DNA of 64,000 nucleotides, taken from contig CAZSSB010000003.1 in the NCBI GenBank assembly GCA_964609245.1, positions 55,854-119,853 of the forward strand, given 5' to 3'. The translations under genes and the position numbers were made by a program. Positions within the stretch are counted from its first letter, which is position 1; the number at the start of each line of letters is the position of its first letter. Under the pieces are notes generated by a model, which was given only the letters and a program-made list of their open reading frames with translations, was not told the DNA's origin and ran no database searches. Below are positions 344 through 36,690 of this stretch, piece after piece. This stretch comes from an uncultured Planctomycetales bacterium (GTDB lineage: Bacteria; 4484-113; JAFGCY01).

Positions 344-3300
344 ATGTTTAGCAGGTCCAATTGGGTGTGGACCCCGCTTCTGCTCGCCGTGGTTCTGTTT
401 CTGGGAGCCTGCGGTGGTGGGGATGCCACGACGGCGCCTGTCCTTGGCCCGGCGTTCAACCTCTTCATCTCGACGGATCGAGAGGTAGGAGCCGCGCCGC
501 TGACGGTGACTTTCAACGCGGTGCCGTCCGGAGGGCACCTGCCGTACACCTACGCCTGGGACTTCAACGGCGATGACGTCGTTGACTCGAACGCGGCTCA
601 AGGCCAATACACCTATGAGGCCAGCACAGTCGCGACGGTGACCGTGACGGACGCCGAGAACCAGGTGGTGACGGCATCGCGAACGATCACGATTACCGGA
701 GACGCTGTCGTGAATCCCGGCGATCCTCTCGACGTGCGCTTCAACGCCATGCCGCAGGTGGGCAATGTGCCCTTCAACGTGCAGTTCACGGCGTACGTCA
801 CGGGTGGCAAGCAGCCATACAGCTACTCATGGGACTTCGAAGGCGACGGTGTCTACGATAGTTTCATCGAGAATCCGCTGTACACCTACGAGGAAGTGGG
901 GCAGGAGGTTGAGGGGAATCGCAACGTCTTCTATCCCGTGCTGCGGGTGCAGGACAACCGCGGGGTTGTCGGCACCAACTTCGATGACAAGGACAGCAAC
1001 GGCAGTCCGGACTTCAAGATCCAGATTAACGCTGCGCCGCCGCTGACGGGCGGGATGCAAGTCGCCGTCAACGCCAATCCGTTGTCGGGGCAGGCACCAC
1101 TGACCGTTGAGTTCAGCGGAGCGGTAACCGGGGGATCCGGAAACTACGAGTTCGTGTGGAGTTTCGGCGACGGATCGTCCAGCGAGCCGCTGGCGAGTTC
1201 GATGGCCACTCACACCTACCTGCAGTCCGGCGTGTATCAAGCACGAGTGACAGTGCACGATACGACAACCGACGAGGAGGAGACCTCCTATCCGCTGACG
1301 ATCGAGGCCAGTCCTCAGCAGGAATTCACCATCAGCATCGACAGCGACGTCGTCGCTGGACAAGTGCCGTTTGTGGTCAACTTCGAAGCGTTGCCCGCCA
1401 ACGGCAAAGAGCCAATCCTCTACGAATGGGACGTATTCACAGACATGACGCCTGGGGAGGACGAGCCGACGATCGGCAATCCTCCGGCACTGAACGGAGC
1501 CGCCGTCGTAACACCGGATTACACGAACCGGGTTAATCCGACGATCCACTTCGGCAACACCGCGGGCACGGGAGCTGCGTACAGCTACGTGGCTCGCTGC
1601 GTGGCCCATGATGCCAACGGCAACGACGCCGTGAGCAACCTGATCCGGGTCGTGGCGTCGCCCAACACCGCGATGCCGTTCTACGAGTGTGAGCGGCCGC
1701 TGGTGATGGGCAGCACCATCTTCCCGGTCTTCGCCGGCACCGGCGAATCGGCCGACGCGATCTACCAGCCGTATCTGATACCCGTTCCGTGGCCGGCTCG
1801 TGCCAACGCGGCTACGACGGCGCATCCCACAGGTATCACCTACATCCTGGGCGGTGAGCACCTGGATGAGAACGGCAACTTCGAGAGCCTGGTTGACCGC
1901 GGGGACTCGGCCTACATGTTCGTGCCCGCCACCGGCGGCACCGGCACCGGCGAGGGAACGATCGGCAAGTTCAACACCTTGGCCGACGGTTACATCATCA
2001 AATTGAACGATGACACCGCCCCGGCATTCCCCAGTTCCCCGCAGACGCCATTCTCGCCTGAGTGGCGCAGCGACTTCGACGCAGGCGATACGGCTGTCCC
2101 GATTCCGGTGGAGGATCCGCCGACAGCCTCGCCGCCGCCGGTTGGATCGCAGCGCAGTGCGCCGTTCACGATCGTGGGTAGTGCCGCAGCAACGTACATC
2201 AACGAGCGTCCAGAGACCAACCCGGCGGGCGCGTATCCCGGCCCCGGTTACTGGGCCAGTGCCCTGCCGCCGATCGTCCTCGATCGGGATGTCCAGTTCC
2301 TGGATGTGGACAAGCTCTGGCCGTGGCCCGATCAGGCCTGTCACGGCTGGGGCTGCGATGCCGGCAGTTGAGGCACGATAGATGGCACGGGCGTGCCTGT
2401 AATCTACGTGTTTGGTGGGCGTACCGCCGCGACTACTCCGACCGACCTGGTCCAGAAGTACCTCGTCTATGGCTATGGCTCAGAGTATCTGGTGCCGTGG
2501 AGCCAGGACTTTGGCTTCCAGGTGACGTCGAATCAGACCGATATCTGGAGCCCGTATTTCCTGAGGCCTGACACGGATCAGTTCCCGGGTTCGGGGGGCA
2601 ACTTCGATCCACAGATCGATGATCGCCGTGAAGGTGGTTCCGGTGGTTCAGACAACGCGGTACTGCCCAGCCTGCCACAGCCGCTATACGGTCTGATGGC
2701 GGTGCGCGTGCAGAGCGGCGTCGACTCGCCGTCACCTGACTTCCCCTACGGTGGTTTCACTTACATCTACTTGTTCGGCGGCATCACGGCGTCCGGCGTT
2801 GCCTCCGACGAGATGTTGCGCTGGAGTCCGAGCGAAGGTGCGGAAACGACGGGCGGTGGCCAGGCGGAGAACCCGATCCAGATCGTCAGCCAGATGCCGC
2901 GGGCCCGGGCTTACGGCAAGGCCGTGTTTGTGCCGGCTCGTGACTACTTGATCGCGCTGGTGGGCGGCTTTGACGACAACGGCGTGCCGATTGATGAGAT
3001 TGACATCTTCACCTTCGACAGCATCTACAACCCGTCGGGTGGCGGCTGGTCCACCTTTGAGGGATCCCTGCCAGAGGCACTGGTGGCCTGCGGCGCGGGC
3101 TACAACGAGGGCTACCCCGGCGAGGACTGGGTGCTGACGATGGGTGGTTGGAACGGCGAGTTGTATTCGCACCGGATGTATTCCGCCCGTATCGAGAGCG
3201 CCGGCAACCAGGTGATCCGCGAGCTGGTGGTTACGGTGCCGCGCGCGTACGCGGGCAGCACGCAGTCGGGCTCGAACCCGCTGAGTACGCTTCGCGTGGA

Positions 3301-3400
3301 GAACATGCTCTCGCCCATTACGTTCAACCGCTACTTCGTACTGGCGGGCGTGGATGAGAATGGTGCCGAGTCGATTGTGGAGACGCTGAGTCTCCCATAG
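344..3400 (+). CDS. PKD-repeat / Kelch beta-propeller lipoprotein with an in-frame TGA at 2369-2371 (candidate selenocysteine, residue 676 of ~1018)
   Basis: AGGAGG RBS before ATG 344; lipobox FLGAC; several PKD motifs (YxWDFxGDG, VTVTDA). Track ORFs 305..2371 and 2393..3400 are in the same frame, separated only by TGA plus 7 sense codons. Six Kelch-type xxYxxGG blades span the TGA. Confidence 0.8.
2372..2412 (+). promoter_or_regulatory. SECIS-like hairpin directly 3' of the in-frame UGA
   Basis: CACG(2374-77)/CGTG(2407-10), TAGAT(2379-83)/ATCTA(2402-06), GGCAC(2384-88)/GTGCC(2393-97); apical loop GGGC starts with G, 17 nt after UGA. Confidence 0.65.
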
Positions 3401-3413
3401 GAGAAACATCAGG

Positions 3414-3447
3414 CCGGGTCCGGTGTCGGAACAGACACCGGACCCGG
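3414..3447 (+). terminator. Perfect 14-bp intergenic stem-loop (terminator or mRNA-stabilising hairpin)
   Basis: CCGGGTCCGGTGTC-ggaaca-GACACCGGACCCGG; no clear U-tract. Confidence 0.6.
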
Positions 3448-3493
3448 TGATTAGACTAGAGGGATGTTGGTGAAGTTACAGGAGGGTGCTGGA

Positions 3494-6100
3494 GTGAAAC
3501 GGACAGCATTGGTTCTGGGGTTGATCGGCGTGATCCTGCTGCTGGCTGCCTGCGGCGGCGGTAACGATGGCACACCTGATGCGGAGGTTGGCCCACTGGC
3601 GATTGAACTGCTCTGGGCGGAGCCCGCAACGGGTTCGAGCCCGTTGAGGGTTACGTTCACAGCGAATGTCACGGGAGGTCTAGCCCCGTACTATTACGCT
3701 TGGGACTATACCAATGACGGCTCGGTTGACAGATACCTCAACGGTGAATTTCGGCGGACGCTTAGCGTGGCCGAAGACTACTACTTCCGGGCGTCGGATC
3801 CTGGCGGCGTGTCCAGCTACGAGGCAGTCTTGACGGTGACCGACAGTGAGGGCACCATCGTCACCAGTGACCCGGTTGCGATCAACGTGCTTGGCAGCAG
3901 CGGCGTGACCCTCGATCCCGCTGGCACGGGGGCCATTTCGGACGAGGTGGTTGAGGAAGAGATAGACGGCGAGACTGTCTTGGTTTACGTCTACCGGACC
4001 GGAATGCCGGTCTACTTCAGGGCGCAGCCGGTGGGTGGCACCCCTCCCTACGAGTATCAGTGGGACTTCGATGACGACGGAGCGATTGACTCGACAGTCG
4101 CCAACCCGCAGTACATCTTCACCCACACGGGTGTCGGCGTGATGATAGCCGTCGTGAATCTGGAAGTAGTGGACGGGGCCGGCGAGCGGGTGATGTGGCG
4201 GACTTTCCTTGAGATCGAGGGGCCGGATTCCGGCGAAGAGCCCGAACCGCAGTTCGACATCGTCGTCAACTCAACGCCGCCCGCCGATTCCGAGGGCGTG
4301 ATCACAGTCAAATTCGACCCAACCGAGGCTACGGATACGGTGCCCGCGGAGCCCGAGATTGACCTGGCGGTCATCGTGGATCCGTCCGGCGGAGGGATTC
4401 CGCCGTTCGAGTATTACTGGGACTTCGAGAACGATGGCGCATTGGACAGCCAGGCGCTGTCGCCGACGATCCCGTATTACGACAGCAGCCGCAAGATCCT
4501 GATTAACCCCTACTTCCACCAGGAAAGCTCCAAGACGTTCACCCTGCGCTGCATGGTGCTGGATAGCAGCGGCCAGCTGCAGGAAGAGACGCGTACGATC
4601 CTGGCCATCAACGTGGCCAATCGCCCACCCAACGAGATGTCGGTTGAGACCACATATGGCATCGTCAACGAGGGCGGTGCGTTCCTCGATACTCCGCCGC
4701 TGCCCTACGCGGAGGTCGGGGATCGTGAAACGACCACTTACGCCAAGTTCTCGTGTGAGATTAGCGGCAGCACGGGCAATACGTTCGAGTTCCAGTTCGA
4801 TGCCAATGGCGACAACGTTCCGGAGATACCGACGGAGGGCACTGGCTGGTTTGCGATCGAGGGTAGTTCATTCGATGTATTGCAGCCATTCCAGGGCGCA
4901 GGCTATTTCCCGGCCAACGTGCAGATTCGGGCCCTGAACAGCGACCTCAACGTCGTCGATACGACCAGGATCGAACTGCCGATCAGCCTGGTGATCAGGA
5001 AGGACATCCAGCTCACCGAAGGCACACTCGATCCGCGCACGGATCACTGCATGGTCGCGACGTGGACAACCGAGCCCCACGCGTCTAACGGCGAGACCCT
5101 GACTTCGCGAGAGCTGATCATCGTCGGCGGTGCGCGCGGGACCACCCCGCTGAACACAGTTCAGCGCGTGCTGCAGACATATACGCCGCCCAACGAGGAG
5201 GGGCTGATCGAACGGCAGGTCTCGGCAGTGGTGACCGAGCGGCCGTCCATCAACCAGGAGCGACGCGGCAGCGTGATGTGGGCCAACAACGCCGGTTCGG
5301 GCGCGGGAGCCGAGATCCGCATCCACGGTGGCAAGAACGAGGTCAGCGGGATCATGGCGAGCAACGAGCTCTCGAACGGTGGCGGCGGCAACGTGCTCTG
5401 GCTGGTCCTGGCCGAGACGTTGATTCCTGAATACTACCCGCTGCGCGACGCCGCAGGCACGGTGGTGCCCGGACTGGGCTACGTACTAGCGGGTGGCGTC
5501 AACCAGCCGGCCGAGGAGGCCAATACCGTCGTATCGGGCAAAGTGCTGCTCTATGACTCGGTGTTCGACTCCTACGGCGAGATTGCCAACATGATCAAGC
5601 CACGGTACGATGCCAGCGTGGCCTACGTCAATGACCGCCTCTACATCATCGGCGGTCGTTCACCGAGTGGGCAGAGCGTGGCGACGGTTGAATCCTACGA
5701 TCCGAATTCAGGTCAGTGGGACACCTTTGCGCCTCCGATGATTGAGCGGCGCTCCGGCGCGGCGTGTCACGTCGTCGGTGGTCAGATCTACGTGATCGGC
5801 GGCGCGTTCTGGCCTGACAACGAATCAGATCGCATTCTCAAGACGACGGCCGAGGTGTTCAACCCGCAGACCGGAGTCTGGAGCTATACGCTGCCGCTCG
5901 CCAGCGGTGACGAGGCCGACGATCTGGCCTCGACGGCGGCTCCTGCCCCGGGCGGGGTGGCGACCGGTGGCGCGGTAGTCAATTCCATCGTGTGCTTCGG
6001 TGGTGAGCGGCCGGTGGCCGGTGGCGGTAGTGGCGGTGAGGTCAACAACCTCGTCGAGTTCATCTACTTCCACATCGTGGAGCTGCCGCCGGAAGTCTAG
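3494..6100 (+). CDS. PKD-repeat / Kelch-repeat lipoprotein (architecture like the upstream gene)
   Basis: GTG start after GGAGG; lipobox LLAAC; YEYQWDFDDDG and YYWDFENDG PKD motifs; canonical Kelch repeats (PRYDASVAYVNDRLYIIGG...VESYDP; RRSGAACHVVGGQIYVIGG...AEVFNP). Confidence 0.85.
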   Translation: MKRTALVLGLIGVILLLAACGGGNDGTPDAEVGPLAIELLWAEPATGSSPLRVTFTANVTGGLAPYYYAWDYTNDGSVDRYLNGEFRRTLSVAEDYYFRASDPGGVSSYEAVLTVTDSEGTIVTSDPVAINVLGSSGVTLDPAGTGAISDEVVEEEIDGETVLVYVYRTGMPVYFRAQPVGGTPPYEYQWDFDDDGAIDSTVANPQYIFTHTGVGVMIAVVNLEVVDGAGERVMWRTFLEIEGPDSGEEPEPQFDIVVNSTPPADSEGVITVKFDPTEATDTVPAEPEIDLAVIVDPSGGGIPPFEYYWDFENDGALDSQALSPTIPYYDSSRKILINPYFHQESSKTFTLRCMVLDSSGQLQEETRTILAINVANRPPNEMSVETTYGIVNEGGAFLDTPPLPYAEVGDRETTTYAKFSCEISGSTGNTFEFQFDANGDNVPEIPTEGTGWFAIEGSSFDVLQPFQGAGYFPANVQIRALNSDLNVVDTTRIELPISLVIRKDIQLTEGTLDPRTDHCMVATWTTEPHASNGETLTSRELIIVGGARGTTPLNTVQRVLQTYTPPNEEGLIERQVSAVVTERPSINQERRGSVMWANNAGSGAGAEIRIHGGKNEVSGIMASNELSNGGGGNVLWLVLAETLIPEYYPLRDAAGTVVPGLGYVLAGGVNQPAEEANTVVSGKVLLYDSVFDSYGEIANMIKPRYDASVAYVNDRLYIIGGRSPSGQSVATVESYDPNSGQWDTFAPPMIERRSGAACHVVGGQIYVIGGAFWPDNESDRILKTTAEVFNPQTGVWSYTLPLASGDEADDLASTAAPAPGGVATGGAVVNSIVCFGGERPVAGGGSGGEVNNLVEFIYFHIVELPPEV

Positions 6101-6125
6101 GAAGCGAATCAGACATGAACCGCAG

Positions 6126-6165: not shown

Positions 6166-6224
6166 GGTGTATCTTGGGGAGATCCTTGGGACAGGCTACG
6201 CGGCTGAGCAGCGGTTAGCCCCGG

Positions 6225-18676: not shown

Positions 18677-19768
18677 ATGGCAATGCGGCTGGATGCTTCC
18701 CTGATGCCCGAGGCGCGCTGGAACACGCACATCGCGTGCCTGACGCGGCTGTGTGACGCGGCCGGGCGCGGCCTGGACCTGATCGACGTGGCCGGGACGA
18801 CCGGATTGGCCTTCCGCACATCGCTGGCGCGCCGGGTCTCGCCCGCCGGCCAGTACCTTGCCTGGGCCTGGGAGCCGTCCTTCCGGCTGTGGCTGGACGT
18901 CCTGGGGCTGGACGCCGACGTTGCCGCCCACCGCGCCGGCCGTCCGACCTACGACAGCTGGCTTCAGCGCCAGCACGAGCGGATCGCGGACACGCTGGCG
19001 CGGGGTTTTCCGGTGCTCTGGTGGGACAACGTCGGCTTCGCGCTGATCTTGGGGGAGGAGGACGGCGGCTATCTGGTCTCCGGTCTGCCGTCCCAGGTCG
19101 TTCATCCGTTTTGGCTCACCGTGCCGGAGACCGCCGGGCTGGCGGCCCGCCTGCGCGATCCGCGCTCGCGTCAGCCCCAGTCGGTCTTCCGCGTGGAGCG
19201 CGACGACCTGACCTCGGCGGTCGAGCCCGAGGCGCTGCTTGTCTACGTGCACGGCGTGGGTCGGTTCGACCCGGAGCGGGCGCGTGCGCGCAGCATCGCC
19301 CTGGCCTGCGCCGAGCTGGGCGGCCGCGTTGCCTACCCGCGGCTGCGAGGGGACCTCGGGCGCGAATACGAGCCGCAGTTCGGCACGGAGGCCCTGACCC
19401 GCTGGCGCGAGGAGCTGAAGGACGGCCGCGTCCACCCCTTCGGCATGATCCAGGCGCTGCAGTCACTGGGCGAAGCGCGGCGGCTGGGTGCCGAGTATCT
19501 TGGCCGGCTGGCCGACCGCGCGGAGCCGGACCGGGAGCCGGCCCTCAGGCAGGCGGCGCACTTTTTCAAGCAGATCGGCGACTACCTGCGGCCGCTGCTG
19601 CGGGTCTTCGACATGCCGCTCGATCCTGACTCGCAGATGACTCGCGCGCGCTGGGAGTCCGGCCGCGAGGCGCTCTACCAGATGCAGCAGACCGAGGGCA
19701 CCGCCGCCCGCCTGCTGGCCAGCCTGGCTTCCGGCTCGCCGGACGAGGAGCAGGTGGTGGGGGGCTGA
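18677..19768 (+). CDS. Hypothetical protein
   Basis: Coding-like 3' part of track ORF 18077..19768, starting MAMRLDAS; the upstream part overlaps gltA out of frame. Confidence 0.65.
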   Translation: MAMRLDASLMPEARWNTHIACLTRLCDAAGRGLDLIDVAGTTGLAFRTSLARRVSPAGQYLAWAWEPSFRLWLDVLGLDADVAAHRAGRPTYDSWLQRQHERIADTLARGFPVLWWDNVGFALILGEEDGGYLVSGLPSQVVHPFWLTVPETAGLAARLRDPRSRQPQSVFRVERDDLTSAVEPEALLVYVHGVGRFDPERARARSIALACAELGGRVAYPRLRGDLGREYEPQFGTEALTRWREELKDGRVHPFGMIQALQSLGEARRLGAEYLGRLADRAEPDREPALRQAAHFFKQIGDYLRPLLRVFDMPLDPDSQMTRARWESGREALYQMQQTEGTAARLLASLASGSPDEEQVVGG

Positions 19769-25762: not shown

Positions 25763-26347
25763 CTAGCCGCCCAGTCCGGCGAAGCCCTGAAAGGCCATCG
25801 CGACGATGCCCGCGATGACCAGGGCGATCGGCACACCCTCCATTGCCTTGGGCACCTCCATCAGTTCCATCCTCTCGCGGATGCCGGCGAAGATCACAAT
25901 CGCCAGGATGAAGCCGATCGCCGAGCCGAAGGCGAACAGCAGCGCGACCGGGTAGTTGTATTCGTTCTGGATCGCCAGCAGCGCCACGCCCAGGATTGCG
26001 CAGTTGGTGGTGATCAGCGGCAGGTAGATTCCCAGCGCGTCGAACAGGCCCTTGGCCACCTTGCGCAGCACGATCTCGACCAGCTGGACCAGTGAGGCGA
26101 TCACCAGAATGAAGGCCAGCGTACGCAGATAGCCCAGGTCGAGCGGGACGAGCACCAGATGGTAGATCGGCCAGGTCACGGCGACGGCCAGCGTCATCAC
26201 GAAGGTGACTGCGAAGCCCATGCCCAGGGCGGTGTCCAGCTTCTTGGAGACACCCAGGTAGGGGCAGATCCCCAGGAACTGCTGGAAGATGACGTTGTTG
26301 ACCAGGATCGCTCCCAGTACCAGCATCAGGATCTCTGCTACGCCCAT
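25763..26347 (-). CDS. rnfA: Rnf electron transport complex subunit A
   Basis: [29 protein letters not shown]. Confidence 0.96.
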
Positions 26348-27003
26348 TACGCCGCACCTCCCTTGGCCAGCCGCGCCTCACGCTCGCGCGACTTTCTCAG
26401 CTCCTCTTGTCGCTGGGTGATTGCGTTCATGCCGGCGATCAGCAGCCCCAGCGTGATGAACGCTCCCGGTGGCAGGATCATGATGATCCAGGGGTGGGCG
26501 GTGAAGGGCGGGACCGGAAACCCCAGCCAGGTGCCGTTGCCCAGAATCTCACGGACGGTGCCGACGGCCACGAGCGCGAAGGTGAAGCCGATTCCCATCC
26601 CCAGCGCGTCGATCATCGACATGAAGATGCCGTTCTTCGAGGCGAAGGCCTCGGCGCGTCCCAGGATGATGCAGTTGACCACGATCAGCGGCACGAAGAC
26701 CCCCAGGCTCTTGCTAAGCTCGAAGAAGAAGCCTTGCAGCACCAGGTCGACGATGGTGACGAAGGCCGCGATCACCACGATGAAGCACGGGATGCGCATC
26801 CGCGGCGGGATGATCTTGCGCAGCAGGCTGACCACGATGTTGCTGCACAGCAGCACGAAGGTCGCCGCCGCCCCCATCCCCAGTCCGTTCTCGACGCTGG
26901 TGGTGACCGCCAGCACCGGGCAGAGCCCCAGCAGCAGCCTGAGGACCGGGTTGTCCTTCCATATTCCCTTCATGAACTCAGCGGAGACGCTGCTAGTTGC
27001 CAC
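26347..27003 (-). CDS. rnfE: Rnf electron transport complex subunit E
   Basis: GTG 27003 after GGAGG; [41 protein letters not shown]. Confidence 0.96.
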
Positions 27004-27814
27004 TTCCCACCTCCTCGGCGGCAGGTGCCTCTGCCGCGTCCGGCTCCATGGTTTCCTCCGCGACCGCCAACTCCTCTTCGGCCGCCATGGTTGGGGCTGC
27101 CTCGGTCGCACCCGGCTGCTCAGCGGTGTCCGTGGGCCGTGACGCGAACTCCTTGATGCCGCCGGCGGACTCGAACGCCCCGATACCCTGGCTCAGCGCG
27201 CTGCAGACGGCGCGGCTGGTGATCGTCGCGCCGGTAACCGCGTCGATCTCGCCGCCGTCCTTGGCGACCATGAAGCTGTAGTCAAGCGGCTTGCCGTCGA
27301 ACTGGTCGATATAGGGCGACTCGGCCGCCTTGCTGCCGAGGCCCGGCGTTTCGGCGCTTTCCAGCACGCGCACGCGCTCAATCGTGCCGTCGGGCGCGAT
27401 GCCGAAGACGATCGAGAAGTAGCCGGAGTAGCCAGTCTTGACCGCGCTGGTCATCCCGAAGCCCGAGGCCGCGCCCTCGTGCTCGCCGACGTACAGCCTG
27501 ACGTCCTCGCTCAGTTCCTGCTCAGTCGCCAGGATGTCGTTGCCGAAGGCCGGCATCACCTGGGTCAGCTTGTCCTGCTTGTCCTTGCGCTTGGCCTCGG
27601 CGATCGGCTCCTCCGTGACGGCGTAGACCATCGCCAGCAGCAGCCCCATCACGGCGGCGATCAGGACGGGCGGCAGCATGATCAGCGGGCTGATTGTGGC
27701 GGCTCCGCTGCTCTGCGCCAGCGCCTCGCCGATCTGCTCGCGCGCCTCGCTGATCTCCTCGTGCTCCGGTGGCTGCACGCTTCTCTGCTGCTCTTGCTCA
27801 GGCACTGGCCTCAC
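26993..27814 (-). CDS. rnfG: Rnf electron transport complex subunit G
   Basis: TM anchor, GYSG, ETPGLGS, IDAVTGATITSRAV FMN-binding motif. Confidence 0.95.
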   Translation of the reverse strand: MRPVPEQEQQRSVQPPEHEEISEAREQIGEALAQSSGAATISPLIMLPPVLIAAVMGLLLAMVYAVTEEPIAEAKRKDKQDKLTQVMPAFGNDILATEQELSEDVRLYVGEHEGAASGFGMTSAVKTGYSGYFSIVFGIAPDGTIERVRVLESAETPGLGSKAAESPYIDQFDGKPLDYSFMVAKDGGEIDAVTGATITSRAVCSALSQGIGAFESAGGIKEFASRPTDTAEQPGATEAAPTMAAEEELAVAEETMEPDAAEAPAAEEVGSGN

Positions 27815-28859
27815 CTCGCAGTACTGTCTCCGCGCCGAACTTGCGCGGCTTGGTATAGCGGTCGATCAGCGGCGTCAGGCCGTTCATGATCAGGATCGCG
27901 AAGCTGACGCCCTCGGGGAACGATCCGAACAGGCGGATCAGCGCCGTGATCAGCCCGCAGCCGATGCCGAAGATGATCATGCCCTTGGCGCTGACCGGAC
28001 TGGTCACCATGTCTGTCGCCATGAAGAATGCGCCGAGGATCAGGCCGGCGCTGAGTACGTGCAGGATGGGATTGGCGTAGTAGTTGGGATTGACCAGCCA
28101 CATGATGCCGGTCAGCACGAACACGGTGACAACATACGTGACCGGCACGTGCCAGCTGATGTAGCCGCGCCAGAACAGCAGTCCCGCGCCGATCAGCAGC
28201 AGCAGCGCGCTGGTTTCGCCCAGACTGCCGCCGGTGTTGCCGATCAGCATCGACCACAGCGAGGTCCCGCTCTGGGCCATCCAGTCCAGGAACGCCTGCA
28301 GGCCATCGCTCTTGATCATGCCCAGCGGGGTGGCGCCGGTCACCGCGTCGAGATTGTCCGCGGCGAGGCTGGGCAGGTCCATGAACTGCGCACCGCTTCT
28401 CGGGTAAAGCCACGTGGTCATCTCCGCCGGGAACGCCAGGAGCAGGAACACCCGAGCTACCAGCGCCGGGTTGAAGATGTTCTGGCCCAGCCCGCCGAAC
28501 AGGTGCTTGCCGAGCAGCATCGCCACCAGCGCGCCGATCAGAACCAGCCACCACGGCGATGTGGCCGGCAGGTTCAGCGCCAGCAGCACTCCGGTCACCA
28601 CCGCGCTGCCGTCCAGCGACATGCTCATCGCCTTGCGGGCATCGATGCGCAGCCTGAGTAGTACGTATTCGAAGACCACGCAGCCGATCGTCGCGCCGAC
28701 GATCACCAGCAGCGCCCGCAGCCCGAAGAACCAGCAGGCGGCCAGCATCGCGGGCGCCAGCGACAGCACCACCGTCCACATTACGTGCGGCACCTGCTCG
28801 CTGCCCAGCGCGTGCGGGCTCGACCTCAGTACCGCCGATTCAACCTTCACGTCAGCCAA
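27798..28859 (-). CDS. rnfD: Rnf electron transport complex subunit D
   Basis: SSPH, DGSAVVTGVLLA, FGGLGQNIFNPALVAR, DAVTGATPL FMN site, GSLGETS, FFMATD. Confidence 0.96.
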   Translation of the reverse strand: MADVKVESAVLRSSPHALGSEQVPHVMWTVVLSLAPAMLAACWFFGLRALLVIVGATIGCVVFEYVLLRLRIDARKAMSMSLDGSAVVTGVLLALNLPATSPWWLVLIGALVAMLLGKHLFGGLGQNIFNPALVARVFLLLAFPAEMTTWLYPRSGAQFMDLPSLAADNLDAVTGATPLGMIKSDGLQAFLDWMAQSGTSLWSMLIGNTGGSLGETSALLLLIGAGLLFWRGYISWHVPVTYVVTVFVLTGIMWLVNPNYYANPILHVLSAGLILGAFFMATDMVTSPVSAKGMIIFGIGCGLITALIRLFGSFPEGVSFAILIMNGLTPLIDRYTKPRKFGAETVLRGEASA

Positions 28860-28868
28860 TACAACCCC

Positions 28869-30242
28869 CTAACTCTTCGCCGCCTCGGCTTCCTGTTGTT
28901 TCTGCTTCGCCTGCGCGCGCCGGCGCATCCGGTTCAGTTCCCACTTCGCCAGCCTGATCCAGTGAACCAGGCGGCGGTTGCTGGGGCAGATGTAGGCGCA
29001 GGTGCCGCATTCGATGCAGTCCAGCGCGTCGGTGGCTTCCTCGAAGCGGCCACGCATCGCCAGGCCCATCAGCTCCGTCGGCACGAGACCCATCGGGCAG
29101 CCGGCCACGCAGCGCCCGCAGCGGATACAGGGATCTTCCTCGGGCAGCCGGACTTCATCCGGCGCGAGGAACAGGATGCCGCTGGTGGCCTTGGTGGTCG
29201 GCTCCGTGATGTCGCTGGTGGCACGGCCCATCATCGGCCCGCCCATCACCACCTCGGCGACGTCACCCTTCAGCCCGCCGCAGAAGTCGAGCAGCGTTTT
29301 GACGCTGGTGCCCATCGGCACCAGCACGTTCTGCGGACGGGCCACCGCGTGGCCCGAGACGGTCACCAGCCGCCGCATCAGCGGACGGTCGTACTGCAGC
29401 GCCTCGTATACGGCCGCGGCGGTCGCGACGTTCTGCACCACGACGCCGACGCTGAAGGGCAGCTTGCCCGGCGGGACGCGGCGGCCGACCGCGGCTTCGA
29501 TCAACTGCTTCTCCGAGCCCTGTGGATAGCGCGTTCTGCAGCGCAGGATCTCGATGCCGGGCAGTCCCTCGGCGGCCGCGCTCATCACCGCGAACGACTG
29601 CGGCTTGTTGTCCTCGATCCCGATGTAAGCGCGCTCGATGCCGGCCGACTTCATCAGCGCCCGCGTACCCTCCAGCACCTGCACGGGATGATTGCGCATC
29701 AGGCAGTCGTCGGCGGTCAGGTAGGGTTCGCACTCCGCGCCGTTGATGATCAGCACGTCGAGAGTGACGCCCGGCGGCGGGCTGAGCTTGACGTGCGTCG
29801 GAAACGCCGCGCCGCCCATGCCCACCAGTCCGGCATCCTTGATCTTGTCGATGATCTGTTTGGCCTCAAGGCCAGCCAGATCGAGCGGCGGCGGGTTGTG
29901 CTCATAGCCGACCACCGGCTCGGCGTCGTCGGCGGGCTTGATCACCACCGACGGGCTGTTGACCGGTCCGATGTGGACCTTGTCCTGCGAGCGCACCACG
30001 CCCTTGAGGGGCGTATGGATGTTGGCGGAGACGAACCCGCCGGCCTCGGCGATCAGCTGGCCGGCCTTCACCTCATCGCGGTTCTTGACCACCGCCTTGG
30101 CCGGGGCGCCGAGGTGCTGACTCAGTGCGATCACCAGCTGCTCGGGATTGGGCAGGACGCTGTAGGTACTGGGATCACACAGCTCCTTGTGCTCCGGCGG
30201 ATGCGTGCCGCCGCGTCTGAAGGTCGCTCCCCTGCCACTCAT
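28869..30242 (-). CDS. rnfC: Rnf electron transport complex subunit C
   Basis: GLVGMGGAAFPTHVKL, NGAECEPYLTAD, YPQGSEKQLI, CIRCGRCVAGCP, CIECGTCAYICP. Start ATG 30242 or GTG 30245. Confidence 0.96.
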   Translation of the reverse strand: MSGRGATFRRGGTHPPEHKELCDPSTYSVLPNPEQLVIALSQHLGAPAKAVVKNRDEVKAGQLIAEAGGFVSANIHTPLKGVVRSQDKVHIGPVNSPSVVIKPADDAEPVVGYEHNPPPLDLAGLEAKQIIDKIKDAGLVGMGGAAFPTHVKLSPPPGVTLDVLIINGAECEPYLTADDCLMRNHPVQVLEGTRALMKSAGIERAYIGIEDNKPQSFAVMSAAAEGLPGIEILRCRTRYPQGSEKQLIEAAVGRRVPPGKLPFSVGVVVQNVATAAAVYEALQYDRPLMRRLVTVSGHAVARPQNVLVPMGTSVKTLLDFCGGLKGDVAEVVMGGPMMGRATSDITEPTTKATSGILFLAPDEVRLPEEDPCIRCGRCVAGCPMGLVPTELMGLAMRGRFEEATDALDCIECGTCAYICPSNRRLVHWIRLAKWELNRMRRRAQAKQKQQEAEAAKS

Positions 30243-31543
30243 CACTGCGCCTCCTCACCGGTCTGGCTACCGGCGATCTCCGCCGGATCGTGTTCGGCCG
30301 CCTTTGACGCCGGGTCGAGCGCGGCCAGTTTGGCCTTGAATCCCGCCTCGATCTTGGGCAGCCGCTTGGCGTATTCCGGATCATTCTCGGCCTTGGCCCG
30401 GGCATCGTCCAATGCCTGCTGGATCTTCTGCCGCTTGGCCTCCAGCTCCGGATCGACCGCCGGTGCCGCGCCCGGCGGCGGACCAAGCTCCTCCAGTTTC
30501 TTAAGGAAGCCCGCTTCGATCTTGGGTAGTTTCTTGGCGTACTCGGGATCGGCGGCCGCCTTGGCGCGGGCGTCGTCCAGTCCCTGCTGGAACTTGGCGC
30601 GCTTGGCGGCGGTCTCGGGGTCTTCACCGCCGGCCGCCAACTCCGCCTGCCGCTGCTTCTCGGCCTCGGCCTTCTCGCGGGCGCGCTCCGTCCACAGCGC
30701 CTCGGCGATGGTGTCGAAGCCCTGCTTCAGGTCCTCCTCGGTGACCATGAACTCCGCCAGATCACGGACCTTGATGAGGTGGCGCGGGCAGGCCACCACG
30801 CACTCGTAGCACTGCGTGCACTTCTCGTAGTTGATTTCCGCCAGGTTGTCATTGAACCAGATCGCGTCGCTGGGGCAGACCTTGACGCATTTCTGGCAGC
30901 CGATGCAGCCGATCTCGCAGACCTTGCTGACCACCTTGCCGCTGTCCAGGCTCTTGCAGGGGATGAACACCTGCCGCCCCTTGGGGATCATCACGATCAG
31001 CTCGCGCGGGCAGGCCTCCACGCACTTGCCGCAGGCCACGCAGTTCTCGGGGATGATCCGCGCGACGTGGTTGTAGATCTCGATCGCGTCGAACGCGCAG
31101 GCTTCGACACAGGTTCCCATCCCGATGCAGCCGTAGGAGCAGACGCGGTCGACCTGGCCCACCAGATGGGCGGCCCGGCAGTCGTTGATGCCTTGATACA
31201 GGCCGTTGAAGCTGGCGCTGCTCTGCAGGCCCTCGCACATCACGTGCGCGACAACCGGTTCCGCATCCGCCAGCTGTTTTCCCAGCAGCCGCGCGATCTC
31301 GGCCATCGCGTCCTGGCTGCAGACCGGACAGGTGCCGTCCTCGCCGGCTACCAGGGCCTCGGCGAAGGCCTTGCAGCCCGCCTTGCCACAGCCACCGCAG
31401 TTGGCGCCGGGCAATAGCTCCTCGACCTGACCGATGCGCGGGTCCTCGTAGACGTAGAACTTCTTGGCCGCCAGGAGCAGTGCCAGAGAAAGGAGCAGCC
31501 CCAGGCCGCCCATCACGCCCGCCGGTATCAATACTTCGATCAT
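30242..31543 (-). CDS. rnfB: Rnf electron transport complex subunit B with a duplicated helical C-terminal extension
   Basis: ATG 31543 (MIEVLIP); LPGANCGGCG, CSYGCIGMGTCVEAC, multiple CxxCxxCxxxCP; ~150 aa charged tail. Confidence 0.94.
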   Translation of the reverse strand: MIEVLIPAGVMGGLGLLLSLALLLAAKKFYVYEDPRIGQVEELLPGANCGGCGKAGCKAFAEALVAGEDGTCPVCSQDAMAEIARLLGKQLADAEPVVAHVMCEGLQSSASFNGLYQGINDCRAAHLVGQVDRVCSYGCIGMGTCVEACAFDAIEIYNHVARIIPENCVACGKCVEACPRELIVMIPKGRQVFIPCKSLDSGKVVSKVCEIGCIGCQKCVKVCPSDAIWFNDNLAEINYEKCTQCYECVVACPRHLIKVRDLAEFMVTEEDLKQGFDTIAEALWTERAREKAEAEKQRQAELAAGGEDPETAAKRAKFQQGLDDARAKAAADPEYAKKLPKIEAGFLKKLEELGPPPGAAPAVDPELEAKRQKIQQALDDARAKAENDPEYAKRLPKIEAGFKAKLAALDPASKAAEHDPAEIAGSQTGEEAQ

Positions 31544-31547
31544 AAGC

Positions 31548-32057
31548 TCACTCGATCTTGTCCAGATGTATCTCGAGTCCACCGTCCCTGGATGCCACCT
31601 TGTACAGGTGCACGAACGCCAGGCTGATTCCGATCCCCGCCGCGACGCCGATCAGGCTGCCGATGTTGCCGTCGATGCCCAGAAAGGCCTCGGCCACCGC
31701 GAAGCCGGCGAACGAACCCACCAGCACCAGGAGCGCCGGGATCAGGTAGAGCACAAATGACGCTCTTACCACCGCCGCCGCGAAGGTGGTGATCCGTACC
31801 CGGTCCCCGACGCTGAACCCGCTCGCTTGCACTTCCAGCTGCCGGCCACCGAGTTCCGCTACGTGGCAGGACTGCCGTGTCTGACAGGCGTCACAGGCGG
31901 TCGGAGTGGCGACCTCGACCACCACCACCGATTCCCGAACTGCCACAACGCGTCCCTCGCAGGAGGACTGGGCACGCTCGGCGCCCGCGCCGTCTGGCGC
32001 CTGGTCATCCGGATTCCGTCTGCTCATGGCTGCTCGGTCCAGTTCCATGCGCCTCAT
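31548..32057 (-). CDS. rseC: SoxR reducing system RseC family protein
   Basis: EGRVVAV, CDACQTRQSC, VGDRVRI, SFVLYLIP plus 2 TM; first gene of the rnf operon. Confidence 0.85.
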   Translation of the reverse strand: MRRMELDRAAMSRRNPDDQAPDGAGAERAQSSCEGRVVAVRESVVVVEVATPTACDACQTRQSCHVAELGGRQLEVQASGFSVGDRVRITTFAAAVVRASFVLYLIPALLVLVGSFAGFAVAEAFLGIDGNIGSLIGVAAGIGISLAFVHLYKVASRDGGLEIHLDKIE

Positions 32058-32216: not shown

Positions 32217-32672
32217 CTAAGGCGTTTGCCGACGGCTGTCGAGGAAGGTCTGCAGGATGGCGGCGGCGGCCTGAGCGTCCACGGCTGCCCGCGGGCGTTT
32301 GCCGCCCCTGTGGGCTTCGCGGTCCCGGGCCAGCGCCTCGGCTGTCGTGAAGCGTTCATCGACGAAATGCAGTTCGCAGCCGAGTTCAGCGGCGAGCGTG
32401 GTGCCCAGCTCGCGGGCGCGGACGGCGGCCTCGCCTTCGCCGCCGTGCTGGTCCAGTGGCAGGCCGACCACCAGGCCGGCCAGCTGGCGCTGGCCCAGCG
32501 CTGCCCGGAGGCGGGTGGCAAGTGTGTGACGCGGTTCGGTGGGTAGTACAGATAAAGGCAGGGCCAGCGTGGCGCTGGTATCGGCGACGGCCAGTCCGCA
32601 ACGCACAATGCCGGGATCAAGACCGAGCCATTGAGTGTCTATCTCACTGGTGGGTGGTTTCAGGTTGCACAT
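32217..32672 (-). CDS. ruvX: Holliday junction resolvase-like / pre-16S rRNA nuclease RuvX (YqgF)
   Basis: WLGLDPGIVRCGLAVAD, LVVGLPL, FVDERFTT, VDAQAAAAILQTFLD. Confidence 0.92.
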   Translation of the reverse strand: MCNLKPPTSEIDTQWLGLDPGIVRCGLAVADTSATLALPLSVLPTEPRHTLATRLRAALGQRQLAGLVVGLPLDQHGGEGEAAVRARELGTTLAAELGCELHFVDERFTTAEALARDREAHRGGKRPRAAVDAQAAAAILQTFLDSRRQTP

Positions 32673-32727
32673 CGGTATGCTGGAGGATAATATTACACCG
32701 GTGGCCCCGAACCTTAGCGAGGTGGCA

Positions 32728-34719: not shown

Positions 34720-34761
34720 TGTCGCCGGCAGCGGGTTTTCACGATCTGCCGATCCGCTTTC

Positions 34762-35844
34762 TCACACGTGAACCGTGAAGCGTTCGCCCTTGCGCAGGTC
34801 GAGGCAAAATGCGCTCAGCAGCCGCGCGATCTTCTCAAGATCCTTGAGATCGACGGTCTCGACCGGGCTGTGCATATAGCGCTGGGCCAGGCTGACCACC
34901 GCCGTGGGGATGCCGGCGCGCGTGCGGAAGATGCTGTCGCCGTCGGTGCCCGTCCAGCCGGGCGCGGCCTCGTGCTGCAGATTGATCCTGAGGCGCCGCG
35001 CCAGCCTGGTCAGGCGCTCGACCACCACCGGGTGGCAGGCGCTGCCGTGGGCCAGCACCGGGCCCTGGCCGATCTTGTGCTCGCCCCACTTCTTCTTGTC
35101 GCTGTGGGGATGGTCCACGCTCTGGGTAACGTCGACGGCCAGCGCCACGTGCGGATCGATGCGGAAGGAGCCCATGCGGGCTCCGTGGCCGCCGATCTCC
35201 TCCTGGACGGTGGCCAGCGCCACCACCTTGGCCTTGAGCTTGTCGCGTTTGGCCGCGCAGCGGCGCAGACCCTCGGCGGCGGCCCAGATGCCGATCTTGT
35301 TGTCCAGGCCGCGGCTGGCCAGCAGCTCGTTCTGCAACTCCAGCGGTCCGTAGTCGAGGATCATCGGATCGCCGACGCGCACGTGCTGCTCGGCTTCCTT
35401 CTTGTTCCTGGCGCCGATATCAACATAGATGTGCTCGCCGAACTTATAGCGCGCGATCTCGGTGCCGCCCGTCGCCGGATGCTGCAGGTGCGGGGGCTGC
35501 GCGCCGATCACGCCCGCAAGCGGCCCGTCCTTGGTGAAGATCTTGACACGCATGCTGGGCAGGATCTTGGCGTCGTAGCCACCCAGGCTGGCGACCCACA
35601 GGAAGCCCTCGTCGTCGATGTAGGTCACCATCAATCCGATCTCGTCGGCGTGGCCGGTCAGCAGAGCCGTGGGATCGCCGTCCGGGTTGAGTACGGCGAA
35701 GCCGTTGCCGTAGCTGTCGGTGAAAACCTCGTCGGCATATGGCTTCAGGTAGTCGCACCAGGCCTTGACCGCCGGGCCCTCAAAGCCGGTCGGCGCGGGG
35801 CGCTCGATCAGGTCGAGCAGGAACTGCTTGGCGTCCTTGTCCAT
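34762..35844 (-). CDS. M42 family metallopeptidase (TET/Frv type)
   Basis: GHADEIG, SRGLDNKIG, TVQEEIG, AVDVT, GTDGD, RYMHSPVE. Confidence 0.93.
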   Translation of the reverse strand: MDKDAKQFLLDLIERPAPTGFEGPAVKAWCDYLKPYADEVFTDSYGNGFAVLNPDGDPTALLTGHADEIGLMVTYIDDEGFLWVASLGGYDAKILPSMRVKIFTKDGPLAGVIGAQPPHLQHPATGGTEIARYKFGEHIYVDIGARNKKEAEQHVRVGDPMILDYGPLELQNELLASRGLDNKIGIWAAAEGLRRCAAKRDKLKAKVVALATVQEEIGGHGARMGSFRIDPHVALAVDVTQSVDHPHSDKKKWGEHKIGQGPVLAHGSACHPVVVERLTRLARRLRINLQHEAAPGWTGTDGDSIFRTRAGIPTAVVSLAQRYMHSPVETVDLKDLEKIARLLSAFCLDLRKGERFTVHV

Positions 35845-35850
35845 GGCGGG

Positions 35851-36690
35851 CTATTGTAGCGCCTGCGGGGCATGTCCGGGCTTGTCTGCAACGGCCTCGC
35901 CAAACTCCGCCGGCGGTCGCCTGCCGGCGTGCCACAGCACTGCGCCGGCTGCCGCCATCAGCACGATCACCACGACGCGGTAGGCATCGGGTTTCTCCGG
36001 AGCGGTGTTGGCGACGAACCAGAGCAGGAAGATGCACACGACGTACATGGTGCAGGTGCCCATGTGCCACATGAAGCCCTCTTTGCGGCGCAGCAGCACC
36101 AGCCACTGGACGAGCATCGCCAGCAGCACTGCCAGTGCCAGCCAGGAGCCCAGGACGGGTCCGTAGTACGTCCAGTTGCGGCTGATCAGGAAGTAGGTCC
36201 CCGGCAGCAGGTGCGGAACGAGGTTCAGCACCTCAAAGGCCGCGAGCGGGAGGATCAGCAGCCCCAGCGTCCAGCCCAGGGACTGCCGGATGACGTTCGA
36301 GCGTACGGCGGCATAGATGGCTGAGGGCGGGTAGGCGACGAGCAACTCAGGTGGCACCGTCAGGTGCAGCGAATGGTGGATCGCGGCGGCGGCGGCGCCA
36401 AAGACCGCCAGCAGGGCGCTGAACGGCTGCGAGATGAGCGCGGGCTCGAGGAAGCCTCCGGGCGAGCCGTACCACGGCCGGGGTGGCCCGCCTCAACCCC
36501 CGCCGGGGCAGCCGATGCCGAAGGCGCTGAGCACGTTCCAGCCGGTGGCGACGGCCAGCAGCAGCACCGGCAGCCAGACCGCGGCGATCAGCAGCAGCGC
36601 CGGCCAGCGGTAGCGCCGCCACCAGTCGTGCTGCCTGGCCGCCAGCTGGCGCCGCAGTGGCGCAAGCCCGCTGTCAGCCCGCCGTCGCAC
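35851..36690 (-). CDS. Multi-pass membrane protein with an in-frame TGA at 36495-36493 (candidate selenocysteine, residue 66 of 279)
   Basis: Track ORFs 36493..36690 and 35851..36357 are in the same frame (333 nt apart). Reading through gives ...FGIGCPGGG*GGPPRPWYGSPGGFLEPALISQPFSALLAVFGAAAAAIHHSLHLTVPPELL... with no other stop. TACAAT lies 7 nt before GTG 36690. Confidence 0.75.
36459..36490 (-). promoter_or_regulatory. SECIS-like hairpin directly 3' of the in-frame UGA
   Basis: mRNA: UGA GG CGGGC CACCCC G GCCGU GGU ACGGC U C GCCCG; lower stem CGGGC/GCCCG, upper stem GCCGU/ACGGC, loop GGU 19 nt after UGA. Confidence 0.6.

Follow-up and report, generated by a model that had tools for sequence, protein, structure and literature searches.

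Two genes in the 64-kb stretch of DNA analysed here (the window) are each interrupted by an in-frame TGA, which raises the question of whether these codons end translation or are decoded. Judged by comparison with relatives, the window probably holds two unrelated, unannotated selenoprotein genes in which UGA is recoded to selenocysteine (Sec), most likely founding two new selenoprotein families with Sec outside the cytoplasm. Sec is very probably what is decoded, as indicated by the conservation of TGA, reading frame and flanking peptides, by compensatory changes in SECIS-like hairpins and by a swap between Cys and Sec. The first-pass annotation had correctly described both TGAs, each with a Cys codon at position (-5), GGC as the next codon and a hairpin loop 17–19 nt further on. 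Chance nonsense mutations, which it had considered unlikely, are ruled out because TGA, frame and hairpin are retained among relatives (TGA and hairpin in those of gene 1, TGA in those of gene 2).

A Kelch-propeller lipoprotein gene with an in-frame TGA

Gene 1 (positions 344–3400, forward strand; ATG at 344, TAG at 3400) encodes a candidate selenoprotein of 1018 residues. A comparison of open reading frames places those at 305–2371 and 2393–3400 in one frame; databases annotate the gene as two proteins of 675 and 335 residues. The translation begins with a lipoprotein signal peptide (344–412, forward strand; MFSRSNWVWTPLLLAVVLFLGA followed by C) whose lipobox, LGAC, is kept with it in the orthologues P0019, P0021 and P0033. 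PKD/Ig-like repeats and then a Kelch beta-propeller follow, PKD and Kelch both being matched by Pfam. Full-length homologues of 950–1004 residues span the junction, and the model of homologue P0003 resembles Ig-like repeats plus Keap1/KLHL12-type propellers. The fragment 3' of the TGA lacks a separate signal peptide and forms the rest of an exported propeller, so it cannot stand alone. The gene order efp, gene 1, paralogue, dnaK, grpE is conserved across the orthologous loci. The adjoining paralogue (3464–6100) has clear Kelch repeats in Pfam.

The proposed Sec codon (2369–2371, forward strand) aligns in one column across the eight orthologous loci compared (L012, L001, L002, L003, L014, L004, L011 and L013), and the reading frame across it is retained in every one. 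The junction sequence of a ninth locus, L015, is identical to that of L014. Directly 3' of the TGA, the peptide GT[IV]DG[TA]G is conserved with synonymous codon variation, while the start codons that gene callers place after the TGA vary between orthologues; both observations argue that translation continues across the TGA. The exact 675-residue upstream product occurs on 17 contigs from independent assemblies, so the gene 1 TGA is not an assembly artefact, an objection raised in the first-pass annotation.

Upstream of the TGA lies a Cys/His-rich stretch, CHGWGCDAGS (2339–2368, forward strand), with Cys(-10), His(-9) and Cys(-5), the last being the TGC at 2354–2356; the TGA is followed by GTIDGTGVPVIYVFGG, with GGC as the next codon. 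The stretch is kept in clade A (the window, L012, L001, L002, L003 and L014), whereas clade B has NTCA in its place and L013 has ET-U-A. The pairing of Sec with its partner in this family differs by clade, being C-x4-U, C-x-U or U-x-U. A gap-free alignment of ET-TGA-A-TGA-G in L013 with TCA-TGA-G in L004 and L011 presents a Cys/Sec swap. The first-pass annotation had suggested comparing relatives for U-to-C swaps; one is seen at the partner residue (C-A-U versus U-A-U) but not at the main Sec site, where none of the 20 full-length relatives without the TGA has a Cys; other residues stand there, in a variable loop. The modelled loop around the site is of low confidence (pLDDT 53–61).

Twelve nucleotides after the TGA is an apical SECIS-like hairpin, GGCAC-GGGC-GTGCC (2384–2397, forward strand), whose loop begins 17 nt from that codon; the stem predicted for this genome spans about 2371–2413. 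Pairing is complete in nine sequences (45 of 45 cells), against 20–71% in slid-register controls. Two of the five pairs have changed on both sides (A-U to G-C and C-G to U-A), one of them through two synonymous third-position changes. Stem mismatches occur in non-Sec relatives, and L007, one of these, has the same peptide as gene 1, GTGVP, yet a mismatch in the stem. The folding energy is not clearly better than that of shuffled sequence (z = -2.3 to +0.7). As read from these alignments, the gene 1 hairpin is under RNA-level selection.

An orphan membrane protein gene with an in-frame TGA

Gene 2 (35851–36690, reverse strand; GTG at 36690, TAG at 35851) encodes a candidate selenoprotein of 279 residues with Sec at residue 66. 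Hydropathy and the positive-inside count predict a membrane protein of six helices with both termini inside, eight Arg/Lys preceding helix 1 and one lying in the Sec loop. No relative of gene 2 was found in Pfam, NCBIfam or PDB folds, and no non-Sec relative is known. Its junction reads AFGIGCPGGG-TGA-GGPPRPWYGSP, with GGC as the next codon.

The proposed Sec codon (36493–36495, reverse strand) stands in the same column in all five other members with DNA (L009, L010, L016, L018 and L020), which are 39–75% identical to gene 2. All six sequences read as DNA across the junction retain the following G-[GA]-P-P-x-P-W, and where codons of GGPPxPW differ at the third position the encoded residue stays the same; as in gene 1, this argues that translation continues past the TGA. 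Thirteen nucleotides after the TGA is a SECIS-like hairpin, GGCCG(U)-GGU-(A)CGGCU (36465–36479, reverse strand), its loop 18–19 nt from the TGA. L009 has an outer A-U pair where gene 2 has G-U, and the distant members carry CAGC-CGUG-GCUG in the corresponding position, 12 nt from the TGA. Among the members compared, no pair of this hairpin has changed on both sides, and its folding energy, too, is not clearly better than that of shuffled sequence (z about 0).

Competing readings of the two TGA codons

At 65% G+C, two long open frames split by one stop are very common, and open frames alone therefore prove nothing; the weight of the case, as a matter of sequence, is on the comparison with relatives. 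Both hairpins have stems of 5–6 bp. Such hairpins are uncommon: one at the distance of the two candidates lies behind only 63 of the 1871 TGA trinucleotides in the window (3.4%) and behind two of the 107 TGAGG sites; both candidate sites pass the same test. The first-pass annotation had called for a genome-wide scan for in-frame TGA with Cys at (-5) and a hairpin. A scan of the 64-kb window that combined an in-frame TGA, open and coding-like frames on both sides and a hairpin returned just the gene 1 and gene 2 sites.

The alternative that survives best, though an unlikely one, is that the TGA is read through without Sec: a near-cognate tRNA would insert Trp, Cys or Arg, or deliberately partial termination would give a short and a long isoform. 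The hairpin and the TGA-GG context might help such read-through. It would fit the conservation of the TGA-GG context in both families, the short and energetically unremarkable hairpins, the want of a Cys homologue at the main site and the result that selA, selB, selD and tRNA-Sec were not found in the window or in about 170 kb of fetched loci, which overlap or repeat one another in part. Against it, hairpin position and loop match the SECIS consensus in every member, and the swap from C-A-U to U-A-U is what Sec/Cys exchange predicts. Truncation would leave half a propeller in one case and a single helix in the other, neither of them likely to be of use as an isoform.

Somewhat less probable still is the proposal of the first-pass annotation that there is a single extracytoplasmic redox or metal system in which surface proteins receive the same grafted Gly-rich C-x4-U loop, with Rnf/RseC as a possible source of electrons. 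Both sites do read G-C-x-x-G-x-U-G in this genome, both proteins are predicted to be extracytoplasmic, and both families occur in one metagenome (Ga0180435). The apparent motif in gene 2, however, stems from a Cys codon at (-5) (36508–36510, reverse strand) that is unique to this genome: L009 and L010 have Ser, L016 and L018 lack the residue, and L020 has a Cys at (-3) instead, the other four of the five members having no Cys nearby. Spacing also varies in the gene 1 family, which leaves only the Gly after U and the TGA-GG nucleotide context common to both. The SECIS elements are unlike, a covariance model of the gene 1 element missing that of gene 2 (9.5 bits, E = 0.58). The genes lie 34 kb apart and are not neighbours in any locus fetched; the 10-kb flanks fetched for gene 1 orthologues contain neither gene 2 nor Rnf, and nothing emerged that links the genes to one another or to Rnf/RseC. 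As to the motif, sequence comparison already contradicts this model, and the amino-acid likeness at the two sites is a coincidence.

It is very improbable that these are pseudogenes or truly split genes, with the TGA acting as a genuine stop and the part beyond it either dead or separately translated. Database gene callers do split both genes, and adjoining long open frames are expected at this G+C content. But about a dozen diverged lineages never have TAG or TAA in place of the TGA, and frameshifts and additional stops are absent. The residues immediately following the TGA are strongly conserved, no start codon is, and the downstream half of gene 1 lacks a signal peptide. Genes of this lineage end more often on TAG than on TGA (22 TAG, 15 TGA and 2 TAA among the 39 gene ends in the window), yet TAG never replaces either candidate TGA.

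This organism uses TGA as an ordinary stop, as the first-pass annotation held, and HrcA, RnfB, RseC and an M42 peptidase end on it with complete Pfam domains. An altered code with UGA as sense (Trp or Gly), or a sequencing or assembly error, has only the two in-frame TGAs themselves in its favour and is the least credible reading, already contradicted by the 15 domain-complete TGA-ended genes, by the occurrence of just two in-frame TGAs in about 39 genes and by the recurrence of the same TGA in every orthologue and on 17 separately assembled contigs.

Proposed decoding and relation to known selenoproteins

On the favoured reading of Sec insertion, the UGA of each gene would be recoded by the ordinary bacterial route. 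The short, G+C-rich hairpin 12–13 nt downstream, with its G-rich apical loop, would serve as a minimal bacterial SECIS, bringing SelB with Sec-tRNA(Sec) to the ribosome. The predicted location of both Sec residues is extracytoplasmic: gene 1 has the lipoprotein signal with its lipobox, and in gene 2, whose six-helix protein has its N-terminus inside, Sec falls in the first periplasmic loop. The Sec of gene 1 would occupy a flexible loop that is specific to the lineage and directly precedes a propeller blade, and it always has a Cys or second Sec as a close partner; we infer that it would most likely form a redox site (selenenylsulfide or diselenide) or bind a soft metal on the cell envelope. 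Gene 2 would be an orphan inner-membrane protein whose Sec heads U-G-[GA]-P-P-x-P-W some 15 residues beyond helix 1. What the genes would have in common is the machinery for recoding and their place in the envelope; no sequence module or demonstrable pathway unites them.

The published bacterial SECIS consensus, taken here as the bSECISearch model summarised in PMC13188914, is matched by both hairpins; it asks for a loop of 3–9 nt that opens with two G, at least 4 bp of stem and 16–37 nt from UGA to loop. The elements of genes 1 and 2 have loops of 3–5 nt with G at the first two positions, 16–19 nt from the UGA; Rfam gave no match to either. As in genes decoded by SelB and tRNA-Sec through an in-frame SECIS, a conserved UGA is followed by a small stem-loop right downstream inside the coding region, and, as with known bacterial selenoprotein genes, the database proteins end at the UGA. 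Unlike nearly all known selenoprotein families, neither has a Cys homologue at the main Sec position, and the host proteins belong to no recognised oxidoreductase or known enzyme family.

The first-pass annotation had spoken of an undescribed extracytoplasmic Sec system; its prediction of that location stands for both genes, but extracytoplasmic and membrane selenoproteins with a proposed metal-binding role are already on record. In the SAO system (Haft and Gwadz, bioRxiv 10.1101/2022.07.06.499078), SaoB is a substrate-binding protein with a CU motif and SaoP an ABC permease with a gating Sec. Sec likewise stands there in an extracytoplasmic binding protein and in a membrane protein, paired with a neighbouring Cys or second Sec, and soft-metal binding rather than classical redox catalysis is proposed. 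In contrast, genes 1 and 2 encode a PKD and Kelch lipoprotein and an orphan six-helix protein, without an ABC transporter, SAO neighbourhood or NCBIfam match, and have C-x4-U, C-x-U, U-x-U and U-GGPP in place of CU.

In thioredoxin-fold selenoproteins with CxxU/UxxC motifs (DsbA-like, AhpD-like and SelW-like; PMC1088965), some of which work in the envelope (for example, the DsbA-like), Sec and a nearby Cys could similarly form a selenenylsulfide. However, Pfam and NCBIfam detected no thioredoxin-like domain in genes 1 and 2, the spacing is one or four residues rather than two, and the gene 1 Sec lies in a variable beta-propeller loop rather than at the helix N-terminus of an active site. No Kelch or PKD selenoprotein is mentioned in the selenoprotein reviews and database papers examined. 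Gene 1 also resembles Kelch-propeller proteins, bacterial PKD-Kelch surface proteins among them: its C-terminal half matches Kelch Pfam models, and its homologue model superposes on the six-bladed propellers of Keap1 and KLHL12 (TM about 0.6, normalised to target). Unlike in those propellers, long disordered insertions carry the gene 1 Sec loop.

An in-frame TGA in a family of PKD-Kelch lipoproteins

Gene 1 (344..3400, + strand) starts at an ATG (344), meets an in-frame TGA at 2369-2371 and stays open beyond it as far as a TAG at 3400, giving a translation of 1018 aa with the junction ...WPWPDQACHGWGCDAGS-TGA-GTIDGTGVPVIYVFGG. The product starts with a lipoprotein signal peptide (MFSRSNWVWTPLLLAVVLFLGA, cleavage before C; lipobox LGAC) and matches the Pfam families PKD (7.5e-18) and Kelch_4 (3.6e-08), with propeller blades on both sides of the TGA. 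Lipobox signal, PKD domain and Kelch repeats are each present, which defines the fold class as PKD-Kelch bacterial lipoprotein; a fold search with the model of a full-length homologue (P0003) returned Ig-like repeats plus Kelch propellers. The 3' end of gene 1 is adjoined by a paralogue (3464-6100, + strand) encoding an 878-aa lipoprotein with PKD-like and clear Kelch repeats, 29% identity to gene 1 in the N-terminal part and no in-frame TGA. In all related loci with long enough flanks, the pair is kept beside efp and dnaK-grpE.

In a homologue search, relatives that share 54-82% identity with gene 1 appear in annotation as a pair of proteins (~680 and ~330 aa), and those at 33-53% identity are single proteins, mostly of 950-1010 aa. 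We compared the DNA of eight orthologous loci: L012, L001, L002, L003 and L014, which form clade A with the window; L004 and L011, which form clade B; and L013. The junction of a ninth locus, L015, is a duplicate of that in L014. The TGA occupies the same column, in frame and followed by a conserved peptide, in the window and in 8/8 orthologous loci, and the flanking peptides show coding conservation in one frame on both sides. Where flanks are long enough, the order efp, gene 1, PKD-Kelch paralogue, small TPR gene, dnaK, grpE is that of the window. One of the relatives belongs to MAG Zod_Metabat.1143 (JAFGCY01) from Zodletone spring.

The first-pass annotation had named assembly artefacts or recent pseudogenization as grounds on which a selenocysteine (Sec, U) reading would fall. 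For gene 1, both are excluded, as is a true split gene. An assembly error is incompatible with the finding of the window's exact upstream product on 17 contigs from separate assemblies. Against a recent pseudogene or a true split gene stand the retention of TGA, frame and downstream peptide, the unconserved start of the downstream part, for which gene callers pick different codons (MP[VIT].. versus VLGG..), and the lack of a signal peptide on that part, which yet completes an exported propeller.

The motif around the TGA differs between clades: GWGCDAG[SG]-U-GT[IV]DG[TA]G[VA]P in clade A, GW[VI][RQ]NTCA-U-GS[VI]PGTGVP in clade B and GWGLET-U-A-U-GNPPGTGVP in L013. The last contains two TGAs six bases apart (L013:6666-6674; JGI 3300060480, Ga0589154_00002891; ET-TGA-GCT-TGA-GG, with one Ala codon between). 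A single hairpin, 12 nt past the second TGA, is present for both, raising the puzzle of how one SECIS serves two UGAs 6 nt apart. The first of these TGAs aligns without gaps to the clade B Cys (C-A-U versus U-A-U). A search for U-to-C swaps, proposed earlier as a check, has a split outcome: there is a Cys/Sec swap two residues 5' of the main U, and none at the main Sec site, where 0/20 full-length homologues carry a Cys. Judged from its sequence, the U-x-U of L013 is a possible natural diselenide site.

Throughout the family, a chalcogen partner of Sec is always present and its spacing varies (C-x4-U, C-x-U or U-x-U); the C-x4-U type has a further C-H five residues upstream, and the resulting C-H-x3-C-x4-U of clade A looks like a ligand set. 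A relative close to clade B, L007 (Ga0180435_10056439, 2413-2700), from the same source metagenome as the Sec-containing L002 and L004, has no TGA, and V-S-V replaces C-A-U. Because Cys and Sec are absent together in L007, the comparison suggests that the pair acts as a unit, accessory to the core function of the propeller. In the predicted model of the full-length non-Sec homologue P0003, the loop that corresponds to the Sec site is of low confidence.

The gene 1 hairpin, GGCAC-GGGC-GTGCC, begins 12 nt 3' of the TGA. Elements of the family have a 5-6 bp stem, a GGGC or AGGU loop and 17 nt from UGA to loop, and in the window genome the predicted stem reaches ~16 bp, starting directly after the UGA. 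Pairing of the 5-bp stem is complete at every position of all nine sequences, and two of the five pairs are altered on both sides. An A-U pair becomes G-C in L001, L002, L003 and L014, where two amino acids change jointly (T-G-V to A-G-A), and a C-G pair becomes U-A in L014, with two codons altered synonymously at their third positions. As a control, the 3' arm was shifted by 1-3 columns, which gave 20-71% pairing, versus 100% in register. In the non-Sec L007, the same GTGVP peptide is encoded with a C-U mismatch in the stem, and the stems of two other loci with relatives (L006 and L008) are likewise imperfect. The covariation supports the view that the gene 1 hairpin acts as an RNA structure.

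A TGA in an orphan membrane protein gene

Gene 2 (35851..36690, - strand) is translated from a GTG at 36690 through a TGA at 36495-36493 to a TAG at 35851, yielding 279 aa with the junction ...NVLSAFGIGCPGGG-TGA-GGPPRPWYGSP. Searches of Pfam, NCBIfam and PDB folds returned no family or fold relatives. The hydropathy profile has six hydrophobic segments. Since eight Arg/Lys residues precede helix 1 and one lies in the next loop, the predicted topology is N-in, and residue 66, the Sec, would lie in the first loop on the periplasmic side. A DsbB-, VKOR- or CcdA-type protein finds no support, the predicted model of the C-terminal 213 aa (pLDDT 67) having no fold relative in the PDB.

Two relatives were found by word-based search, and six clusters when 1.84 billion representatives were searched exhaustively with HMMER. 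All of them are gene models starting past the TGA position, and no homologue without the TGA was found among those representatives. The TGA lies in the same column in the window and in 5/5 members for which DNA was obtained (L009, L010, L016, L018 and L020, at 75, 71, 41, 40 and 39% identity, respectively). Upstream of it, HDWWRRYRWPALLL-type sequence is present where the contig reaches; downstream follows U-G-[GA]-P-P-x-P-W, with codons varying synonymously.

The hairpin of the window gene, GGCCG(U)-GGU-(A)CGGCU, begins 13 nt 3' of the TGA and has a 5-6 bp stem with a UGGUA or GGU loop, 18-19 nt from the UGA. All members have a hairpin at the equivalent place, reading [G/A]GCCGU-GGU-ACGGCU in close members and CAGC-CGUG-GCUG, 16 nt from the UGA, in distant ones. 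The stem shows one change, which is one-sided (G-U to A-U), and the hairpin is re-formed in the distant members.

Upstream of gene 2, the stretch 36733-39326 (- strand) encodes two proteins that match no family, one of 528 aa and a membrane protein of 401 aa. The C-terminus of the 528-aa protein is kept 5' of gene 2 in L010 and not in the distant members, whose neighbours are ferredoxin and pyruvate:ferredoxin oxidoreductase genes.

The two sites within the window

Because long open-frame pairs split by one stop are very common at 65% G+C, frame continuity across a TGA is weak evidence, above all for gene 2 with only 72 codons upstream. A hairpin test (5 bp or more of stem, a loop of 3-5 nt containing G, 11-14 nt after the TGA) was passed by 63 of 1871 TGA trinucleotides in the window (3.4%) and by 2 of 107 TGAGG sites; both candidate sites pass it. 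When we scanned the window for in-frame TGAs that have a hairpin and are flanked on both sides by 50 or more open codons with coding-like codon-position G+C, the gene 1 and gene 2 sites alone were returned. Another apparent in-frame TGA, at 19463-19465 (- strand), lies in the antisense frame of a + strand gene.

The 39 gene ends in the window comprise 22 TAG, 15 TGA and 2 TAA. As stated in the first-pass annotation, TGA is an ordinary stop elsewhere: the genes for HrcA, RnfB, RseC and the M42 peptidase encode complete Pfam domains and end on TGA. A sense-codon reading of UGA (as in genetic codes 4 and 25) is rejected on the 15 gene ends and on the count of only two in-frame TGAs in the window. 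TAG is the commonest stop here despite 65% G+C; TGA is usually the dominant stop in G+C-rich genomes.

In bacterial SECIS elements, the apical loop measures 3-9 nt and the upper stem 4-16 bp, and the loop lies 16-37 nt from the UGA; either the first or the second loop position is a G, usually with G or U after it (PMC13188914, a 2026 review). All 15 of 15 elements from both families fit this consensus. No Rfam SECIS family matched, with only noise returned by a gathering-threshold scan of the window and by E-value scans at both sites; such silence is not unusual for short, diverse elements. Folding energies do not separate either element from shuffled G+C-rich sequence, and the case for the elements rests on conservation instead. 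No selA, selB, selD or selC (tRNA-Sec) gene turned up on searching the window, the 10 kb preceding it and 12 related loci. With TGA, frame and peptides conserved and hairpins fitting the consensus, there is good support, short of proof, for the proposed reading of both TGAs as selenocysteine. By the criteria of selenoproteome surveys, both genes qualify as candidate new selenoprotein families.

The two sites had also been taken for a common G-C-x-x-G-x-U-G or C-x4-U module of one extracytoplasmic Sec system with a possible link to Rnf. The description of the sites is accurate: in both genes a Cys lies five residues 5' of the TGA, GGC comes next and a hairpin follows. The module itself dissolves in the family alignments. 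At position -5 of the gene 2 family, Cys is found in the window only; L009 and L010 have Ser there, L016 and L018 lack the residue, and in L020 a Cys stands at -3. Spacing in the gene 1 family varies as well. Common to both families are only U-Gly and the nucleotide context TGA-GG. A covariance model, a step suggested earlier, was built from the nine gene 1 elements (R1). It scores 64 bits on itself and 9.5 bits (E = 0.58) on the gene 2 site, and nothing else in the window is significant; the two elements are thus not one sequence family. As for a single system, within the fetched flanks neither gene adjoins the other or Rnf/RseC in any relative. The Rnf cluster of the window (25763-32057, - strand) is complete, with rseC-like, rnfB, rnfC, rnfD, rnfG and rnfE/A-type genes whose ends overlap, and no link between this cluster and either TGA gene was found. 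Neither a single system nor a tie to Rnf is supported.

Relation to known selenoproteins and possible roles

The concept of extracytoplasmic metal-binding Sec is not new, because predicted selenoproteins outside the cytoplasm and in the membrane, with Sec/Cys pairs that bind metal, are already known from the SAO system (10.1101/2022.07.06.499078). In contrast to SaoB and SaoP, both genes described here have no NCBIfam match and no CU dipeptide. The ABC transporter neighbourhood of SAO is likewise absent, gene 1 lying beside efp, dnaK and grpE and gene 2 beside an M42 peptidase gene. The fold of the CxxU/UxxC selenoproteins of thioredoxin type is not seen: Pfam and NCBIfam give PKD and Kelch for gene 1 and nothing for gene 2, and the one CxxU is that of a distant gene 2 family member (L020). 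As a rule, nearly all selenoproteins have Cys homologues, whereas neither family here has a homologue with Cys at the Sec site. A Cys-aligned homologue is usual for selenoproteins, not strictly defining.

About 100 bacterial selenoprotein families are known, and new ones turn up regularly. Three features appear to be new here: the host families, the absence of homologues with Cys at the Sec site and the natural U-x-U variant. The reviews and database papers examined make no mention of a PKD-Kelch or orphan six-helix selenoprotein. An Ig-like/Kelch surface lipoprotein and an orphan polytopic membrane protein would be unusual additions. The standard discovery strategy seeks Cys/Sec pairs and is therefore blind to such families; proteins of this kind systematically escape searches that rely on Cys homologues, and many more may exist. 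In none of the public records examined that contain these genes is either one intact: the TGA splits or truncates it, and both are due for re-annotation.

The recoding mechanism would be the ordinary bacterial one. SelB with Sec-tRNA(Sec) would bind the mini-hairpin and Sec would be inserted at the UGA during translation, after which the gene 1 product would be exported by the lipoprotein pathway and the gene 2 product by membrane insertion. We consider this course, SelB-delivered Sec followed by export, quite probable. What the residue does is a more tentative matter. Its place in exposed envelope loops, U-x-U included, hints at a possible role beyond catalysis, in a surface selenium chemistry such as metal or chalcogen binding or a reversible Se-S/Se-Se switch. 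In gene 1, Sec and Cys (or two Sec) in a flexible loop might form a reversible selenenylsulfide or diselenide, or a soft-metal site, a predicted function that we put forward with some reserve. In gene 2, a single Sec would sit at the membrane surface, and two Sec could meet if the protein dimerizes; this is speculation by analogy with the proposal for SaoP (10.1101/2022.07.06.499078).

A wider reading is that the lineage put Sec de novo into variable surface loops and not in place of a catalytic Cys, giving rise to an extracytoplasmic, non-enzymatic class. The hosts would be an envelope lipoprotein, whose fold is of a binding type, and an orphan membrane protein, and U-x-U could form a diselenide. 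We hold this to be rather unlikely. If it were true, putative roles would include chalcophilic metal capture, selenium or polysulfide capture, or covalent tethering.

Several other genes in and near the window stand out. About 6 kb 5' of the window start, on the 5' flank locus (L021:4183-4548, - strand), a TauE/SafE-family ORF of 121 aa overlaps the end of a HAD hydrolase gene; the typical length in this family is about twice that, and the ORF may be a half-size or mis-called gene. At 40045-44820 (+ strand), three consecutive genes encode a MoxR-type AAA ATPase, a 418-aa protein that lacks annotation and a TgpA-like transglutaminase membrane protein with DUF4129. Tandem paralogous lipoprotein genes at 54382-57744 and 58064-61141 (+ strand) encode 1120 and 1025 aa, and an ECF-type sigma factor gene (53519-54196) lies just 5' of them on the other strand. 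The first ~120 residues of the two lipoproteins are almost identical and overall identity is 39%, a pattern that points to recent gene conversion or to an N-terminal module common to both.
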